Source: a virus
Taxonomy: Duplodnaviria > Heunggongvirae > Uroviricota > Caudoviricetes
Length of the DNA: 8,071 nt
Virus record (IMG/VR): IMGVR_UViG_2778261570_000006
Strand: one strand, 5' to 3'
The position numbers and the translations under genes are program-made. This document shows, piece after piece, positions 2,713-6,678 of the stretch; position 1 is the stretch's first letter; the number at the start of each line of letters is the position of its first letter. Under the pieces are notes generated by a model. That model was not told the DNA's origin. It made no database searches and was given only the letters and a program-made list of their open reading frames with translations.

Positions 2713-2991
2713 ATGGTAATTACTTCACTCTGCCCTGTTTGTTTGGCTACATCTTCTGTGCAGACTTTAGTTGAAGGACAGCGCGAATTTTTGAAAATTT
2801 ATCATTGTCCAAATCATGGTAGTTTTGCCGTTCTTCCTGATCTGGACGTGAAATTGCAAGCAATGAGGTGTTCGTCGGGTTATAAGATTGAGCATTCGGA
2901 AGAGGCTATCAGGCTCGATGCACGCTTACGTGAAAGCATACGCCCAGTAGATGGTCCTCAGTCGAAAATTCCAGTATTCCGCTCTGTCTAG
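2713..2991 (+). CDS. Small zinc-ribbon-like protein (92 aa), unknown function; rightward gene in the sieB position
   Basis: In frame with track ORF 2635..2991; start set at ATG 2713 with SD AAGGA 7 nt upstream. Translation MVITSLCPVCLATSSVQTLVEGQREFLKIYHCPNHG... has a CxxC ... HCPxH arrangement. Family not recognised. Confidence 0.6.
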   Translation: MVITSLCPVCLATSSVQTLVEGQREFLKIYHCPNHGSFAVLPDLDVKLQAMRCSSGYKIEHSEEAIRLDARLRESIRPVDGPQSKIPVFRSV

Positions 2992-3000
2992 TTTTCCCCG

Positions 3001-3022
3001 ACTGGCACCCTGTGGTGCCGGT
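3001..3022. other. Hairpin between convergent genes; possible bidirectional 3'-end structure without a U-tract
   Basis: ACTGGCACC (3001-3009) / CTGT loop / GGTGCCGGT (3014-3022), 9 bp including one G-U pair. It lies between the stop at 2989-2991 and the minus-strand stop at 3022-3024. No T-run on either side. Confidence 0.3.
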
Positions 3023-3321
3023 TACATCTCCTCGATCATCGCATTTGCTACGGCCCGCAGATCTTCCAGTGCACTTTCAACTTTTGGATCTTTTGCGGTC
3101 TCACTGACTTTTTTCATGGCATCAGCCATTCTTTTAATCAGATCATTTGGAGTCTCTTTCGGGTTAGCAGACACCCTGCTGGCCAGCTCCAGTGCAAGAC
3201 GTGCATCTTTTGGTGTAATGCCTTTATCTTTTGCCATCTCTGCTGCCAGCTCAGAAAGCTCGGATGCAAGAGTGAGAACGCTTCTTCCCGTTTTTGACGG
3301 ATATATATCGTGTGTGAACAT
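3022..3321 (-). CDS. Hypothetical acidic, Lys/Glu/Ala-rich helical protein (99 aa); first gene of the leftward early operon
   Basis: Track ORF; ATG 3321..3319 with SD GGAGAGGA ending 5 nt upstream. The antisense ORF 2951..3340 is Ser/Ala/Leu-rich and looks like shadow sequence. No arginine-rich N-terminus, so it is not N-like by sequence. Confidence 0.65.
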   Translation of the reverse strand: MFTHDIYPSKTGRSVLTLASELSELAAEMAKDKGITPKDARLALELASRVSANPKETPNDLIKRMADAMKKVSETAKDPKVESALEDLRAVANAMIEEM

Positions 3322-3389
3322 TGTTTTCCTCTCCCCTTAACGCCGGGTGGCGGAACTAAAACCTACAGCGCCGTGCTGCTTCTGTAATA

Positions 3390-3418
3390 ATATTAGTTAT
3401 GTTCATATTGATGATCAA
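3390..3418 (-). promoter_or_regulatory. pL-like leftward early promoter with overlapping palindromic operator-like site
   Basis: On the minus strand: -35 TTGATC (3418..3413), 17-bp spacer, -10 TAATAT (3395..3390). The 13-bp palindrome ATTGATGATCAAT (3407-3419) overlaps the -35. TTGATAAAAA recurs at 3436-3445 and 3479-3488. Confidence 0.45.
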
Positions 3419-3511
3419 TAGAAATATGCATTTTGTTGATAAAAATGTACTATCCTAATGAAATTTTTAGTGTTTTTTTTGATAAAAAGTAAGGCGGGGC
3501 GGGCGGAGGGG

Positions 3512-3539
3512 ACAAAAAAACCGCCAAAAATGGCGGTTT
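3512..3539 (-). terminator. Intrinsic terminator of the repressor gene
   Basis: Stem CCGCCA (3521-3526) / TGGCGG (3531-3536), extendable with A-T pairs, loop AAAA. On the minus strand it is followed by TTTTTTT (complement of 3514-3520), starting 20 nt after the repressor stop at 3559-3561. Confidence 0.6.
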
Positions 3540-3558
3540 AGTTACGAGGTGGTGGGAG

Positions 3559-4023
3559 CTATTTCTTCATGCGTTTTTGAGCTGCCAGCATATTTTCAAA
3601 TGCTTCTTTGTAGAGTTCATTCTGACCTTTAAGTCTTTCGATTAGTTTTGCTTTTTCTGATTCGGGAAGGATATCAAAAAGATCTAGTAAATCAGCTTGT
3701 TGCTTGTTAACCATCCGCCAACCTTCGCCTTCGAAACTTTCGTCATAAGTTCCTGAGGAACGGACGTAATTCATCAGATCAGCTAAATCAGGCCTCAACT
3801 CTTCAGGCTTAACTCTTAGTAATACAGCGAATTTTAATGCCGCATCAGTATTAAGTGGAGCCTTTCCGTTGAGATAATGGCTAACCGCAGATTGCGCCTC
3901 AAAACCCATTAGCTCGGCAGCAAGCTCCTGAGTCAGTTTGAGCTCTCTTTTTTTTGCATCCCAGATTGCGCGCAGACGTTGCGTAGCTTCCGGCGATGCG
4001 ATTTCTTCGCGTTTTCTTCTCAT
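3559..4023 (-). CDS. racR: XRE-family HTH prophage repressor (RacR/DicA-like), 154 aa
   Basis: Track ORF. The segment LTQELAAELMGFEAQSAVSHYLNGK looks like an HTH. The C-terminal LPESEKAKL...LAAQKRMKK resembles my recollection of the DicA tail. It is divergent from the Cro-like gene and has its own terminator. The racR symbol is given by synteny; orthology is unverified. Confidence 0.6.
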   Translation of the reverse strand: MRRKREEIASPEATQRLRAIWDAKKRELKLTQELAAELMGFEAQSAVSHYLNGKAPLNTDAALKFAVLLRVKPEELRPDLADLMNYVRSSGTYDESFEGEGWRMVNKQQADLLDLFDILPESEKAKLIERLKGQNELYKEAFENMLAAQKRMKK

Positions 4024-4070
4024 ACCATCATCTTATGAATACAGTTCATAATCTCAAACTGATATAGGTA

Positions 4071-4099
4071 TTGATCATTTAAATTAGTATGGTTAATAT
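4071..4099 (+). promoter_or_regulatory. pR-like rightward early promoter
   Basis: -35 TTGATC (4071-4076), 17-bp spacer, -10 TAATAT (4094-4099): the same hexamers and spacing as the leftward promoter. Upstream inverted repeat TTATGAA-N5-TTCATAA at 4033-4051. Confidence 0.45.
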
Positions 4100-4127
4100 T
4101 TTGGTGAGCATTACTGAGGTGACACTT

Positions 4128-4403
4128 ATGACATTAGATGAATATTTGAAAAAAAATCGTGTACGACAGTCTTGTTTGGCCGCGCTGGCTGGTTGTTCGC
4201 AATCAATGATTAGCCTCGCTGCTACTGGACGTAGTCAGTTAAGCCCTGAAAAGGTATTGCGTATCGCAGAGGCTACGAATTTCGAGGTTACACCTCATGA
4301 ACTCCGGCCTGATATCTACCCGAATCCGACCGATGGTTTACCTGTTGGATGTAAGGCTAACACACAAAATACACAGGAGTTGATTCATGAAAATCAGGCA
4401 TGA
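4128..4403 (+). CDS. ydaS: Cro/YdaS-like HTH regulator, 91 aa
   Basis: In frame with track ORF 4089..4403. Start set at ATG 4128 because GAGG (4116-4119) lies 5 nt upstream and the track's ATG 4089 falls inside the predicted promoter. Translation MTLDEYLKKNRVRQSCLAALAGCSQSMISLAATG... The ELRPDI motif fits my recollection of the YdaS family. Confidence 0.6.
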   Translation: MTLDEYLKKNRVRQSCLAALAGCSQSMISLAATGRSQLSPEKVLRIAEATNFEVTPHELRPDIYPNPTDGLPVGCKANTQNTQELIHENQA

Positions 4404-4809
4404 GCACATTGAGTCAGTGCTGTTAGCCCTGGCCGCTGAAAAAGGGCAGGCATGGGTAGCCAGTGCAATTACTGAAGAATATCTGCGCCAGGGAGGCGGC
4501 GAATTGCCCCTGGTACCAGGCAAGGACTGGAACAATCAGCAGAATATCTATCATCGTTGGTTGAAAGGTGAAACGAATGCGCAAAGGGAAAAAATTCAGA
4601 AACTGATCCCAGCAATTCTGGCAATCCTTCCGCGCGAGCTGCGTCACCGACTCTGCATCTTCGATACCCTGGAACGCCGTGCATTACTGGCGGCGCAGGA
4701 AGCGTTGAGTACGGCAATTGATGCGCATGATGATGCAGTCCAGGCCGTTTACCGGAAAGCACATTTCAGCGGTGGTGGAGCGTCCGACGATTCTGTTGTA
4801 GTGCATTGA
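4387..4809 (+). CDS. ydaT: YdaT-like protein (cII-position regulator/toxin family), 140 aa
   Basis: Track ORF; SD AGGAG (4375-4379) 7 nt upstream; overlaps the preceding gene by 17 nt. Translation MKIRHEHIESVLLALAAEKGQAWVASAITEEYLRQGGG... matches my recollection of Rac YdaT; not alignment-verified. Confidence 0.65.
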   Translation: MKIRHEHIESVLLALAAEKGQAWVASAITEEYLRQGGGELPLVPGKDWNNQQNIYHRWLKGETNAQREKIQKLIPAILAILPRELRHRLCIFDTLERRALLAAQEALSTAIDAHDDAVQAVYRKAHFSGGGASDDSVVVH

Positions 4810-4828
4810 TTGAATAGGGTATCCAATA

Positions 4829-5242
4829 ATGAAAATCAAACCGTACATAAATGCCGGAAATCTTACTCCCGGCGAACTACGAGACTGGATCCTGAAACTT
4901 GCAAAAAATGCAGAAATTGCGGGTTGGGGTACAGAAACTTCGGTTCGGAAGCTTCAGAGCGCAGAACTTAGCCTGCGCTCAGTTATGGACGATTTATCCC
5001 CAAGAATTAATTTTCTGGGGTCAGAGCAAATAATTCGTTCGGAAGGTCACTCCAGCGAAGTTGCGGAAGTTCTGAATACTCTGAGGATAACGTTTGCTGC
5101 CGTTCGCGATATTCAACGAACCATTCTCTCATTGATTTCTCAGCTTCAAGAAATTGATAGTCGCATTCCTGGCGGGGGTCATAGAGAGCGTCTTCCAGAA
5201 TGTGAAGAGCAAGGACAGGGGAAACAGATAAGGGATCAGTAA
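4829..5242 (+). CDS. Hypothetical protein (137 aa), candidate; its 3' part overlaps a convergent ORF
   Basis: Track ORF starting 19 nt after the ydaT-like stop, with a weak SD (AGGGT, 8-nt spacer). Hand-counted first-codon-position composition over about 60 codons is G/A-rich and T-poor, which is coding-like. Rare AT-rich codons. No recognisable family. Confidence 0.45.
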   Translation: MKIKPYINAGNLTPGELRDWILKLAKNAEIAGWGTETSVRKLQSAELSLRSVMDDLSPRINFLGSEQIIRSEGHSSEVAEVLNTLRITFAAVRDIQRTILSLISQLQEIDSRIPGGGHRERLPECEEQGQGKQIRDQ

Positions 5243-5462: not shown

Positions 5463-5501
5463 GTCGAACCTCCTTTGGTTCTGTTGATTGGGGAATCACA
5501 G

Positions 5502-5530
5502 ATTATATCCGGAGGAAGGTTCGACACCAG
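5502..5530 (-). promoter_or_regulatory. Candidate promoter for the 151-aa minus-strand ORF
   Basis: Consensus -10 TATAAT on the minus strand, 39 nt upstream of the ATG. The -35 region (CTGGTG) is a poor match. It shares the intergenic space with the RBS of the plus-strand initiator gene. Confidence 0.3.
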
Positions 5531-5541
5531 ATGAGGCAATT

Positions 5542-6678
5542 ATGGTTAAGGCTAAAAACATGCCAAATCCCATGCCAAATCCCATGCCAAAAACTAAGGC
5601 AAACAACGAGCCTTATCGCAAGGTAAAAATAACGATATGGGATGATCCCAAATTTAGGGCGTTATCTCCTCTGCCTCCAAGTGGACAGAGTTTGTTTATT
5701 TATCTGCTGACCAGTCCATTTACCGGGATTATTCCTGGGTTGTTTAAAGCCGGGCGGGCAGCAATGGCTGAAGAGTTGGGGTGGGATATCGAAGCCTTTG
5801 ACTTAGCCTTAGGCGAAGCCATGAATCTTGGCATGGTGAAAGCAGATATCAAAGCCAGAGTTTTTTGGCTCCCGAATGCTGCGAAACACAATCCGCCAAA
5901 CTCGATAAATGTCATTAAATCCTGGGCAAAGGCATTCGCTTTAATTCCTGATTGCCCTCTCAAATGGGAGGCCAGGGAATCGCTGAGAGCCGCGTCCTAC
6001 GGGGTTTCTGAGGCTTTGGGGATGGCATTCGATAAGGCAATCCCTTTGCCTGAGGATAAGCCTAAGGATAAGGCTAACGCTTTGTCATGCGGTATCCAGA
6101 TAACAGATAACAGATATATAAACCCCACACATAACGCGCGCGTGCGCGAGAGTGTTCCGGCCAGTGAGGCAAATGGCGTGCCGTTGCAGACAGCGGAACC
6201 TGATTACCTGGAAGGCCTGAGCGAACCCATCGGGAAATTTCCGATGACCGATGGCTGGCATCCGTCGCCGGATTTTCGACGACGGGCTGCGCTGTGGGGC
6301 GTGGCTCTTCCTGAGCCGGAATTTACACCAGCTGAACTTGCCGCCTTCCGGGACTACTGGACAGCGGAGGGGAAAGTTTTCACGCAGGTTCAGTGGGAGC
6401 AGAAATTCGCCCGTCACGTACATCACGTCAGGGCGCAGGTTAAACCAGTCAGCAAGGGGGGGAACCATGCAGCAACGCCAGGTGGCACCGCATCACGGGC
6501 AGTTCAGGAAATTCGGGCAGCACGTGAGCAGTGGGAACGTGAAAACGGATTTATCCTCGACGGAAACGGCGTGGAAGCTGTGGGAACTCATGGGGGAGGT
6601 TTATTCGAACCGCTGGACCCAGAAGAACGGGGCCGCACCTTCGAAGCTCTGGATTGCACAGATTGGTGCGATGACTGA
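5542..6678 (+). CDS. Phage replication initiator / replisome organiser with DnaT-like C-terminal domain (O / YdaU-position), about 378 aa
   Basis: Track ORF 5488..6678 begins at TTG. The first in-frame ATG with an SD is 5542 (GAGG at 5533-5536, 5-nt spacer). The C-terminal block [43 protein letters not shown] resembles DnaT-like domains as I recall them. The last 212 nt overlap the P-like frame. Confidence 0.6.
5560..5594 (+). repeat. In-frame 12-bp tandem repeat ATGCCAAATCCC, about 2.9 copies, encoding [11 protein letters not shown]
   Basis: Exact copies at 5560-5571 and 5572-5583, and a partial copy at 5584-5594. Each unit starts with an in-frame ATG. Confidence 0.85.
6031..6148. repeat. 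Iteron-like GATAA repeats, AT-rich tract and GC palindrome inside the initiator gene; candidate replication origin
   Basis: GATAAGGC at 6031-6038, GATAAGCCTAAG / GATAAGGCTAAC at 6055-6078, CAGATAA x2 plus CAGATAT at 6097-6117, ATATATAAA, then ACGCGCGCGTGCGCG at 6134-6148. This sits in the predicted linker between the N-terminal domain and the DnaT-like domain. Confidence 0.35.

Follow-up and report, generated by a model that had tools for sequence, protein, structure and literature searches.

Three described immunity regions are closest to the locus analyzed here: those of phage lambda, of the prophage CP-933P in E. coli O157:H7, and of the Rac prophage in E. coli K-12. In CP-933P, the -35 and -10 hexamers of PR are identical to those of a putative PL, the two promoters share operators, and the repressor is leaderless (Jurenas et al. 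2021, PMC8630535); both the activity of the putative PL and its repression by PaaR2 and YdaS were shown using a gfp fusion (PMC8630535). YdaS acts as Cro in this prophage, and YdaT acts as CII via a TTGATT-N6-AATCAA box (PMC8630535; PMC9986795), as defined in PMC9986795 and PMC11879457. In Rac, the experimentally mapped promoter PydaST (TTGACA-18-TAATAT) is overlapped by a RacR operator (PMC9638921, PMC11879457), and a PL-like TTGACA-17-TATAGT with RacR half-sites can be read from the sequence to the left of racR. The paaR2 and racR transcripts are both reported to be leaderless (PMC8630535, PMC9638921).

The window (the whole stretch of viral DNA that was analyzed, 8,071 nt) encodes an HTH repressor, a YdaS-type Cro, YdaT and a DnaT-domain replication protein, in the same gene order as in lambda. 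Based on sequence features, homology, and patterns of conservation and substitution, we propose, with a probability of roughly 0.7, that a Rac-like lambdoid prophage has its immunity switch here, with a lambda-like PL-cI-PRM/OR/PR-cro layout and 17-bp dyad operators. As a phage lysis/lysogeny switch it is ordinary, and its immunity type is without prior characterization. We compared it with 41 loci of the same immunity type, in 39 of which the PL region is readable, and with more distant relatives. The relevant features are as follows.

3022–3321, minus strand: first gene of the leftward (PL) operon, an open reading frame of 99 aa with a GGGGAGAGG ribosome-binding site upstream
3329–3389, minus strand: PL leader with two small hairpins, 3365–3379 and CGCC-ACCC-GGCG at 3343–3354
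3390–3395, minus strand: PL -10 hexamer TAATAT, invariant in 39 of 39 readable loci
3391–3407, no strand: OL1 candidate, TATTAG-TTATG-TTCATA, over the PL spacer and 5 nt of the -10 hexamer
3406–3420, no strand: GATC palindrome TATTGAT-G-ATCAATA, a variant-specific rather than a conserved element
3413–3418, minus strand: PL -35 hexamer TTGATC, containing GATC (TTGATC in 34 of 39 loci, TTGATT in 3, TTGCTC in 2)
3425–3441, no strand: distal OL candidate, TATGCA-TTTTG-TTGATA (10/12), containing the first TTGATA of the earlier note
3518–3539, minus strand: intrinsic terminator 3' of the repressor gene, a 9-bp stem followed by a T run
3559–4023, minus strand: repressor gene, 154 aa, with a lambda-CI-like N-terminal HTH (HTH_3 domain and structure matches)
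4030–4057, minus strand: predicted PRM, TTGAGA (4057–4052), a 16-nt spacer and TAAGAT (4035–4030), 9/12 in the promoter scan
4034–4050, no strand: OR3 candidate, TATGAA-TACAG-TTCATA, a perfect dyad (12/12) in the PRM spacer
4058–4076, no strand: conserved block ACTGATATAGGTATTGATC between PRM and PR, in an OR2-like position, with two possible registers
4071–4076, plus strand: PR -35 hexamer TTGATC, containing GATC (TTGATC in 38 of 41 loci, TTGATA in 3)
4082–4098, no strand: OR1 candidate, AATTAG-TATGG-TTAATA, over the PR spacer and 5 nt of the -10 hexamer
4094–4099, plus strand: PR -10 hexamer TAATAT, invariant in 41 loci
4128–4403, plus strand: Cro-like gene (YdaS family), 91 aa (PF15943, E = 5e-10; phrog_35 match)
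4380–4397, no strand: YdaT box TTGATT-CATGAA-AATCAG (TTGATTCATGAAAATCAG) over the ydaT start codon, 11/12 to TTGATT-N6-AATCAA
4387–4809, plus strand: ydaT, a CII-like regulator, 140 aa (PF06254 match)

The repressor and the Cro-like gene are divergent with 104 bp between them. Residues 12–82 of the repressor match structures of the lambda CI N-terminal domain (3kz3, 1lmb, 3bdn and related entries; E = 5e-9 to 4e-7), and the homology extends to the recognition pair, Gln44-Ser45 in the lambda CI alignment, and to a basic N-terminal arm, MRRKRE in the family alignment, both of which lambda CI has as well. The domain search returned HTH_3 and HTH_31 only, with no S24 peptidase domain, and for the last 70 residues the aligned homologues are short and helical. 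Within the repressor family, PF00717 is present solely in two distant relatives (P0034 and P0035). Induction must therefore follow another route, the repressor having neither an S24 peptidase nor a RecA-cleavable C-terminal domain.

In lambda, Cro and CII occupy the places taken here by the unrelated YdaS and YdaT families, and a YdaS-family Cro and a YdaT-family CII analogue downstream of PR are features of Rac-type switches. The Cro-like gene has a GAGG ribosome-binding site at 4115–4118. Compared with Rac of K-12, the repressor has no similarity to RacR, the Cro-like protein is just 42% identical to YdaS, and YdaT is 95% identical, a combination that reads as the usual mosaic swap of an immunity module. 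The genes flanking the region in sister genomes (kilR, ydaE, ydaF) are the same as in Rac. RacR operators have the form T/A-TAGGC-n3-GCCTA-T/A, and no TAGGC-n3-GCCTA operator is present in the window sequence. Relative to CP-933P, also a Rac-like prophage, the repressor and operator sequences differ, the CP-933P operators being 18-bp repeats with the consensus half GTTTAGTAA, and the repressor gene is followed by a terminator instead of the paaA2-parE2 toxin-antitoxin genes. As in CP-933P, a YdaT box is found, at 4380–4397, which we predict to be a PRE-like activator site. The TTGAT motifs in OR and OL were considered as further YdaT boxes and rejected; there is no match of at least 9/12 in these regions, leaving 4380–4397 as the sole strong box.

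The earlier note had called two promoters of the form TTGATC-17-TAATAT, and exactly two matches are indeed found in the window, at 3390–3418 (minus strand) and 4071–4099 (plus strand). Its reading of these as leftward and rightward early promoters is very probably right, the immunity region being of lambdoid type. The promoters are 681 bp apart, on opposite sides of the repressor gene and its terminator, just as PL and PR flank cI in lambda, and the identity of their hexamers is what is seen for PR and PL of CP-933P. Each fits the sigma-70 consensus at 8/12 positions, which is below the 9/12 cut-off of the scanning tool and explains why neither appeared in the promoter scan. Relatives down to ~50% identity retain a TAATAT-type -10 hexamer at the same place relative to cro and the PL leader (TAGTAT in one relative) and, also in the same position, TTGATC, TTGACA or a related hexamer as the -35 element; at PR, TTGACA is the form found in more distant relatives. 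Transcription is predicted to start near 4106 (plus strand) from PR and near 3383 (minus strand) from PL.

PR would drive the Cro-like YdaS homologue, YdaT and the replication genes, and PL (3418–3390) the leftward early operon. Beyond the repressor gene, PL is accompanied by related dyads and followed by a conserved leader and operon. The leader recurs at ~92% identity in over 200 E. coli genomes with other immunity regions, and this homology stops at the -10 hexamer. The 99-aa product of the first gene of the operon has no Pfam or PHROG match. In sister genomes the PL operon includes a Rha-family gene, a candidate antirepressor. An Rfam scan of 2900–4500 yielded nothing other than two sub-threshold chance matches.

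The repressor itself is probably transcribed leftward from PRM, a weak and probably leaderless promoter: transcription from it is predicted to begin on the A of the repressor's start codon, ATG, at 4023, and a -10 hexamer TAAGAT or TAAAAT is located at a fixed distance from this ATG in all relatives. The lambda repressor mRNA is likewise leaderless. The distance between the predicted starts of PR and PRM is 83 bp, close to the 82 bp of lambda.

The candidate operators are 17-bp dyads whose half-sites begin with TAT, as in lambda, where the half-site is TATCAC; here the candidate is TATGAA. The best of them was already visible to the earlier note as TTATGAA-N5-TTCATAA at 4033–4051; it is present and is a strong operator candidate, but it covers PRM in the manner of OR3 and not PR. 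All five of its central positions vary among the loci, and its half-sites are almost invariant. The OR1 candidate matches the strict dyad at 8/12 positions and has one mismatch to the degenerate dyad. In two relatives (L025 and L028) the corresponding site reads TATGAA-N5-TTAATA or GTAATA, and in a separate immunity group of 70% identity the OR1 17-mer that the geometry predicts keeps AATTAG and CTAATA fixed around a hypervariable centre. The OL1 candidate, which reads leftward as TATGAA-CATAA-CTAATA, is a 10/12 match to TATGAA-N5-TTCATA with no mismatch to TATKAR-N5-YTMATA, and its half-sites are conserved around a hypervariable centre in 20 unique sequences. The distal OL candidate also has conserved half-sites and a variable centre; Salmonella-type relatives have TATGCA-N5-ATCATA at this position. 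OR1 and OL1 overlap their -10 hexamers in identical geometry, comparable to the operators over the -10 hexamers of both PR and PL in lambda and, in Rac, to the operator over PydaST, whose -10 hexamer TAATAT is that of PR here. The expectation that operators overlap both early promoters appears to be borne out, although not by the GATC elements to which it had been attached. Two reasons are proposed for the hexamers that PL and PR have in common: TAATAT also serves as the outer half of a candidate operator (xTAATA is the reverse complement of TATTAx), and both -35 regions belong to one kind of promoter module.

In the two intergenic regions, three sites (3391, 3425 and 4034) reach at least 9/12 to TATGAA-N5-TTCATA, against 0.4 expected, and four match the degenerate dyad, against 0.43; these figures are optimistic because the consensus was partly derived from the same sequences. 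Substitutions are concentrated in the centres of the sites. Among seven close sequences, 5/48 half-site positions vary compared with 13/20 central positions (p = 1e-5) and 39/110 positions elsewhere; among the 20 unique sequences, the figures for half-sites and centres are 2/24 and 7/10 in OR (p = 7e-4) and 5/24 and 7/10 in OL (p = 0.015), although these counts are not independent events because the loci share ancestry, and at two of the four sites the half-sites extend into -10 hexamers, whose conservation is in any case accounted for by their promoter role. Recognition residues and operator also covary between immunity types: helix residues QS in CI and SQS in Cro accompany G at operator position 4 in the type of the window, and T is found there with QA and SQG in one related type (L008) and with QG and SQV in another (L005).

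Based on these observations, we propose that repressor dimers, and probably Cro as well, bind 17-bp dyads with TAT-first half-sites and the consensus TATGAA-N5-TTCATA. Occupied OR1 and OL1, each covering the spacer and five -10 bases, would exclude RNA polymerase from PR and PL, occupancy of OR3 in the PRM spacer would shut off repressor synthesis; the distal OL site lies upstream of the PL -35 hexamer. The centres of OR1 and OR3 are 48 bp apart, twice 24 bp and the same distance as in lambda. The arrangement differs from lambda in that: (i) the best dyad is at OR3 and not at OR1; (ii) there is no clear OR2 dyad; and (iii) in place of three OL sites there are two clear ones, spaced by 34 bp. 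With OR1 the weakest match (8/12) and OR3 perfect, the ranking of the sites is the reverse of the lambda CI affinity order, so that the perfect dyad may be mainly a Cro or autoregulatory site.

The OR2-like position deserves separate consideration. The ACTGATATAGGTATTGATC block is the best conserved across all relatives of 78–100% identity, with variation confined to 4066–4070, yet it contains no convincing dyad and matches the consensus poorly. It can be read as 4058–4074 on the 24-bp lattice of lambda, where the halves ACTGAT and TATTGA are neither symmetric nor TATGAA-like, or as 4063–4079 on a 19-bp lattice. The latter register would correspond to a weak middle operator over each -35 hexamer, TATnnn-TATTG-ATCATn, at 4063–4079 and in the reverse complement of 3409–3425, with each site 19 bp from OR1 or OL1 and filled cooperatively. 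ATTGATCAT would then be the centre and right half of an operator, with the GATC cytosine as the partner of the specificity-determining G in TATGAA. The two 17-mers agree at 13/17 positions, a good dyad in exactly this register, TATGCA-TATTG-ATCATA, covers the PL -35 hexamer of two relatives (L025 and L069), and one lineage changed the C of GATC in both promoters at once. We nevertheless consider such an operator rather unlikely: each 17-mer matches the dyad at only 7/12 positions (8/12 for the degenerate form), the left half and its flank are not conserved at PL, the PL 17-mer would overlap the better-supported distal site at 3425–3441 by one base, and in L025–L028 the right half at PR is ATCGAT or ATCGTT, in which the TCAT core is lost.

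GATC is present at both -35 regions, at 3413–3416 and 4073–4076, as had been claimed, and these are the sole GATC sites in the two intergenic regions. Dam methylation of the two sites, through hemimethylation after replication or the level of Dam, might tune PR and PL. A GATC in a promoter hexamer makes some promoters Dam-sensitive, among them IS10 pIN, dnaA P2 and P1 cre; here it is found at both promoters, each regulatory region having one, inside the -35 hexamer. Both sites are kept in 34 of the 39 loci in which both promoters are readable, and both are lost in three; in one lineage (L051, L059, E. coli RM9088) the two losses are two of only three differences from a near-twin over ~1800 nt, with repressor and Cro unchanged. 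Against this, and in a further difference from the Dam-sensitive promoters named above, natural variants dispense with the GATC. It is lost at PL alone in the two remaining loci (L004 and L062, TTGCTC), L026 and L028 also lack it at PL, and related immunity types carry TTGACA or TTGACT at the same positions; the Rac -35 hexamer, TTGACA, has no GATC either. Nor is GATC enriched in the window (25 observed, ~31 expected from composition). An effect of methylation on these promoters appears unlikely, and no more likely is the stronger proposal that the two GATC sites are a functional pair whose methylation or hemimethylation tunes PR and PL together, coupling the switch to host replication or the Dam level. 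If the latter were true, the parallel loss in the RM9088/L051 lineage would be a selected escape from Dam control.

That the GATC palindromes centred on the -35 hexamers, ATTGAT-G-ATCAAT at PL and ATTGATCAT at PR, are themselves the operators, as first suggested, is very unlikely. The 13-bp palindrome does occur at 3407–3419, and extends to a 7-1-7 form (3406–3420); the PR element is present as well, one base to the right of where it had been placed (4070–4078, not 4069–4077), and is invariant among the seven closest sequences. The two -35 regions further have the 10-mer TATTGATCAT in common. Such palindromes are weakly significant on their own, since a perfect inverted repeat with arms of at least 7 appears in ~9% of shuffles of the AT-rich OR segment. 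Among the 39 loci, which all encode the same repressor and Cro recognition helices, only 5 keep the perfect PL form (2/20 unique sequences). Its left arm varies at 5/6 positions, with 3408–3412 the most variable stretch of the region (TTAAT, TAAGT and GTATA among natural variants), and its right arm ends in C instead of T in most variants. PR has no comparable palindrome, ATTGATCATT being symmetric at 8/10 positions, and a palindrome of 13 to 15 bp with a 1-bp centre misfits the 17-bp geometry of a lambda-CI-type domain. The TTGATAAAAA element does recur, at 3436–3445 and 3479–3488, in both cases as part of a 15-nt direct repeat (D3). Its second copy is not conserved outside E. coli, being absent in Salmonella and in a metagenome-assembled relative, and was rejected as an operator half (7/12 as a 17-mer).

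Finally, the notion that the shared hexamers are mere chance matches in AT-rich DNA, for which one could cite the 8/12 fit to consensus and the omission from the promoter scan, is extremely improbable given two matches where 0.01 are expected even with one mismatch allowed, at positions conserved across genera, with a PR -10 hexamer identical to, and about as far from cro as, that of the mapped Rac promoter PydaST (PMC11879457) and a mosaic boundary in the PL leader exactly at the -10 hexamer. Two or more matches to the promoter pattern arose in 0/200 shuffles, and the pair is strongly non-random.

Of 5426 complete E. coli genomes, 75 carry this immunity type, O157:H7 among them; it also occurs in Salmonella, Hafnia and other enterobacteria. 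A nucleotide search of phage records retrieved no phage with this immunity region; at the protein level the sole full-length homologue is that of Rac-SA53 (69.5% identity), and we found no characterization of either the 154-aa repressor or Rac-SA53 in the literature. The locus thus adds an uncharacterized immunity type to the Rac-like prophage family, together with a concrete operator model; otherwise it is what a lambdoid prophage leads one to expect. Because the repressor joins a DNA-binding domain of the lambda-CI kind to a C-terminal part that is non-cleavable, it offers a useful natural case for comparing how lambda-type operator recognition is put to use again under another mode of induction. 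In K-12, host viability is known to depend on Rac-like repressors, whose loss sets toxic early genes free; the operators therefore need to be known if cross-immunity and lethal cross-talk are to be predicted.

The window represents the immunity region of an E. coli prophage, lambdoid and Rac-like, and carries the following features:

3022-3321, minus strand: 99-aa gene
3390-3418, minus strand: proposed leftward early promoter, PL
3518-3539, minus strand: intrinsic terminator
3559-4023, minus strand: gene of the 154-aa HTH repressor
4024-4127: 104-bp regulatory region
4128-4403, plus strand: YdaS-family Cro-like gene
4387-4809, plus strand: ydaT
5488-6678, plus strand: DnaT-domain replication gene

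Of 5426 complete E. coli genomes, 75 carry the module at 93-99% identity, O157:H7 among them. YdaT is 95% identical to YdaT of the K-12 Rac prophage, Cro is no more than 42% identical to K-12 YdaS, and a comparison of the repressor with the Rac repressor RacR found no similarity; these identities indicate a classic mosaic replacement of the immunity module. A 137-aa ORF between ydaT and the replication gene (4829-5242) matches phrog_37051, of unknown function, over its full length (E = 2e-91). The element TTGATTCATGAAAATCAG (4380-4397) overlaps the ydaT start codon and agrees at 11 of 12 positions with the YdaT box TTGATT-N6-AATCAA, which implies a predicted leftward promoter of the PRE kind, activated by YdaT, like those of Rac and of CP-933P, the Rac-like prophage switch of O157:H7.

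The proposed early promoters do not share one intergenic region; the repressor gene stands between them, as cI stands between PL and PR in lambda. The TTGATC-N17-TAATAT pair itself is present at 3390-3418 (minus) and, for the rightward promoter PR, at 4071-4099 (plus), with no further match in the window; 0.01 matches are expected even at one mismatch, and none of 200 shuffles contained two or more. Both promoters score 8/12 against the sigma-70 consensus, just under the scan cut-off, and are therefore missing from the promoter-scan list.

We compared related loci from species-representative genomes (L003-L024), metagenome contigs encoding intermediate homologues (L025-L031), E. coli variants (L001, L032-L034) and IMG/VR viral contigs (L035-L114). 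Forty-one loci (L003, L004, L035-L068 and the E. coli variants) are of the same immunity type, with repressors 88-100% identical, a common Cro recognition helix (CSQSMIS), and gap-free alignment of the regulatory DNA between repressor and cro (OR) and at PL (OL). The -10 hexamer TAATAT is found at PR in 41/41 of these loci and at PL in all 39 with a readable PL region. Relatives down to ~50% identity keep a TAATAT-type -10 in the same place (TAGTAT in one relative), with TTGATC, TTGACA or a related hexamer as the -35. PR also matches the experimentally studied PydaST of K-12 Rac, TTGACA-18-TAATAT, in its -10 hexamer and in how far that hexamer lies from cro (PMC11879457). Over 200 E. coli genomes with other immunity regions share the PL leader (3329-3397) at ~92% identity, and the homology breaks off at the -10 hexamer, as expected if the immunity-specific part begins at the promoter. 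Together, these comparisons support PL and PR as promoters. The leader contains two small hairpins, one at 3365-3379 with a T-rich tail after it and the other, CGCC-ACCC-GGCG, at 3343-3354; L008 and L028 instead have lambda boxB-like hairpins with GAAAGA loops. The leader hairpins may serve as an antitermination site of the nut or put type, or as an attenuator.

The earlier note placed repressor operators over both early promoters, which appears right in outline, and identified them with GATC palindromes at the -35 hexamers, which appears wrong. The motifs themselves exist: ATTGAT-G-ATCAAT at PL (3407-3419, extending to 7-1-7 at 3406-3420), ATTGATCAT at PR (4070-4078, a base further right than first given), TTGATAAAAA at 3436 and 3479 (repeat family D3) and TTATGAA-N5-TTCATAA at 4033-4051. 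However, shuffling the AT-rich OR segment yields a perfect inverted repeat with arms of at least 7 in ~9% of cases, and palindromes by themselves are weak evidence, whereas the promoter pair is not. The perfect 13-bp form at PL is found in 5 of 39 same-type loci (2 of 20 unique sequences); its left arm (3408-3412) varies most in OL (TTGAT, TTAAT, TAAGT, GTATA, GTTTT, TGAGT and others), and its right arm ends in C rather than T in most variants. The copy of TTGATAAAAA at 3479 is not retained outside E. coli, and although ATTGATCAT is conserved at PR, so is almost all of the block around it. As judged by these alignments, the conserved elements lie elsewhere than in the GATC palindromes.

A better operator model is provided by dyads of the form TATGAA-N5-TTCATA, which predict four candidate operators (matches are to the strict dyad; PRM is the predicted repressor promoter):

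4034-4050: OR3 candidate, TATGAA-TACAG-TTCATA, 12/12, in the PRM spacer
3391-3407: OL1 candidate, TATTAG-TTATG-TTCATA, 10/12, in the PL spacer and 5 nt of the -10
3425-3441: distal OL candidate, TATGCA-TTTTG-TTGATA, 10/12, upstream of the PL -35
4082-4098: OR1 candidate, AATTAG-TATGG-TTAATA, 8/12, in the PR spacer and 5 nt of the -10

The dyad is 17 bp long, as are the lambda operators, and shares its outer TAT with lambda TATCAC. OR1 has one mismatch to the degenerate dyad TATKAR-N5-YTMATA. The two intergenic regions hold three dyads of at least 9/12 (0.4 expected) and four degenerate-dyad sites (0.43 expected), figures that are optimistic because the consensus was derived from those same sites. 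The substitution pattern is more telling: among the seven closest sequences, 5/48 half-site positions vary against 13/20 central positions (p = 1e-5), with 39/110 variable elsewhere in the regulatory DNA. For the 20 unique sequences, the corresponding half-site and central values are 2/24 and 7/10 in OR (p = 7e-4), and 5/24 and 7/10 in OL (p = 0.015). As an independent check, we examined a separate immunity group (45 loci, repressor ~70% identical), where the OR1 17-mer predicted from geometry is AATTAG-N5-CTAATA, with fixed halves and a centre in nine forms.

Other immunity types keep the geometry with other half-sites, TATTCG (L008 type) and TATTnG (L005 type). Repressor residue 45, the matching Cro helix residue and operator position 4 covary across three groups: Ser, Ser and G in the window's type, Ala, Gly and T in the L008 type, and Gly, Val and T in the L005 type. 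In lambda, base pair 4 is contacted by CI Ser45 and Cro Ser28. The covariation, drawn from these three groups, would fit operators common to CI and Cro.

OR1 and OL1 each overlap their own -10 hexamer by the same five bases, xTAATA being the reverse complement of TATTAx; this overlap with an operator half would explain why TAATAT, an unusual hexamer, is fixed in the family and common to PL and PR. From centre to centre, OR1 and OR3 are 48 bp (2 x 24 bp) apart, and the predicted PR and PRM starts 83 bp, compared with 82 bp in lambda. The stretch from the terminator to the distal OL site (3442-3517) contains long A/T tracts (3470-3488), a G-rich run that differs among E. coli strains (3494-3512), and CAAAAAAAACACT, conserved as far as Salmonella.

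The most conserved block (4055-4076, variable at 4066-4070 only) lies between OR1 and OR3, at the OR2 position, and could not be fitted to the dyad in a 24-bp or 19-bp register. A secondary possibility is a weak operator over each -35 in the 19-bp register, at 4063-4079 for PR and at 3409-3425, read in reverse complement, for PL: ATTGATCAT would be its centre and right half, and L025 and L069 have a good dyad, TATGCA-TATTG-ATCATA, over the PL -35 in exactly this register.

Modulation of PR and PL by Dam methylation is speculative. OR and OL each contain one GATC, within the -35 hexamer (25 in the whole window, ~31 expected). Both promoters are readable in 39 of the 41 same-type loci: 34 have TTGATC at both, two have TTGCTC at PL only, and three have lost both GATC sites (PR TTGATA, PL TTGATT). 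L051 differs from its near-twin L052, which has an identical repressor and Cro, at three positions in ~1800 nt, two of them the C of each GATC. The double loss, which is odd, marks one lineage: L051, L059 (IMG/VR) and E. coli RM9088 (NZ_CP042298.1, ~1548122-1548845). RM9088 has both changes, and no other complete E. coli genome has either. Tuning of the operators, tuning of the promoters or selection related to Dam could lie behind the loss. Against a general role for Dam, the PL GATC is missing in relatives with the same regulators (L004, L062, L026, L028), and neighbouring immunity types have TTGACA or TTGACT instead.

Repressor residues 12-82 align with the lambda CI N-terminal domain (PDB 3kz3, 1lmb, 3bdn; E = 5e-9 to 4e-7), keeping Gln44-Ser45 at the start of the recognition helix, and the basic arm MRRKRE is reminiscent of lambda STKKKP. 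A domain search found no S24 peptidase domain in the repressor; PF00717 is fused to the same N-terminal domain only in the distant relatives P0034 and P0035. The repressor would therefore be a lambda-CI-type DNA binder that is not inducible by RecA-stimulated self-cleavage, and its induction probably needs an antirepressor. In the sister prophage of O157:H7, a Rha-family gene (L001 3421-4269) is part of the PL operon. At full length, the window is matched most closely (99.3% identity) by E. coli ETEC1748 (L034), whose repressor gene (4738-5201) is annotated as frameshifted, with operator and promoter sequences unchanged.

The promoter scan placed PRM at 4057-4030 (minus), TTGAGA-16-TAAGAT; its -10 is TAAGAT or TAAAAT at a constant distance from the ATG in all relatives. 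The predicted +1 is the A of the repressor ATG (4023), which would leave the mRNA without a leader, a property already known from lambda cI. Leaderless transcripts have been reported for paaR2, the CP-933P repressor gene (PMC8630535), and for racR from PracR3 (PMC9638921).

In CP-933P, PR and PL are reported to have identical -35 and -10 elements and similar operators, and the repressor gene to be leaderless (PMC8630535); the K-12 Rac prophage has a RacR operator over its ydaS promoter (PMC9638921). Left of racR (L002 3630-3690, minus), K-12 Rac has TTGACA-17-TATAGT with RacR half-sites ATTAGGC inside and flanking it, a PL/OL-like copy of the racR-ydaS operator region whose layout parallels the window. 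The locus is a new immunity type within the experimentally described Rac/CP-933P arrangement, one that pairs a lambda-CI-like DNA-binding domain with a predicted lambda-like 17-bp operator.
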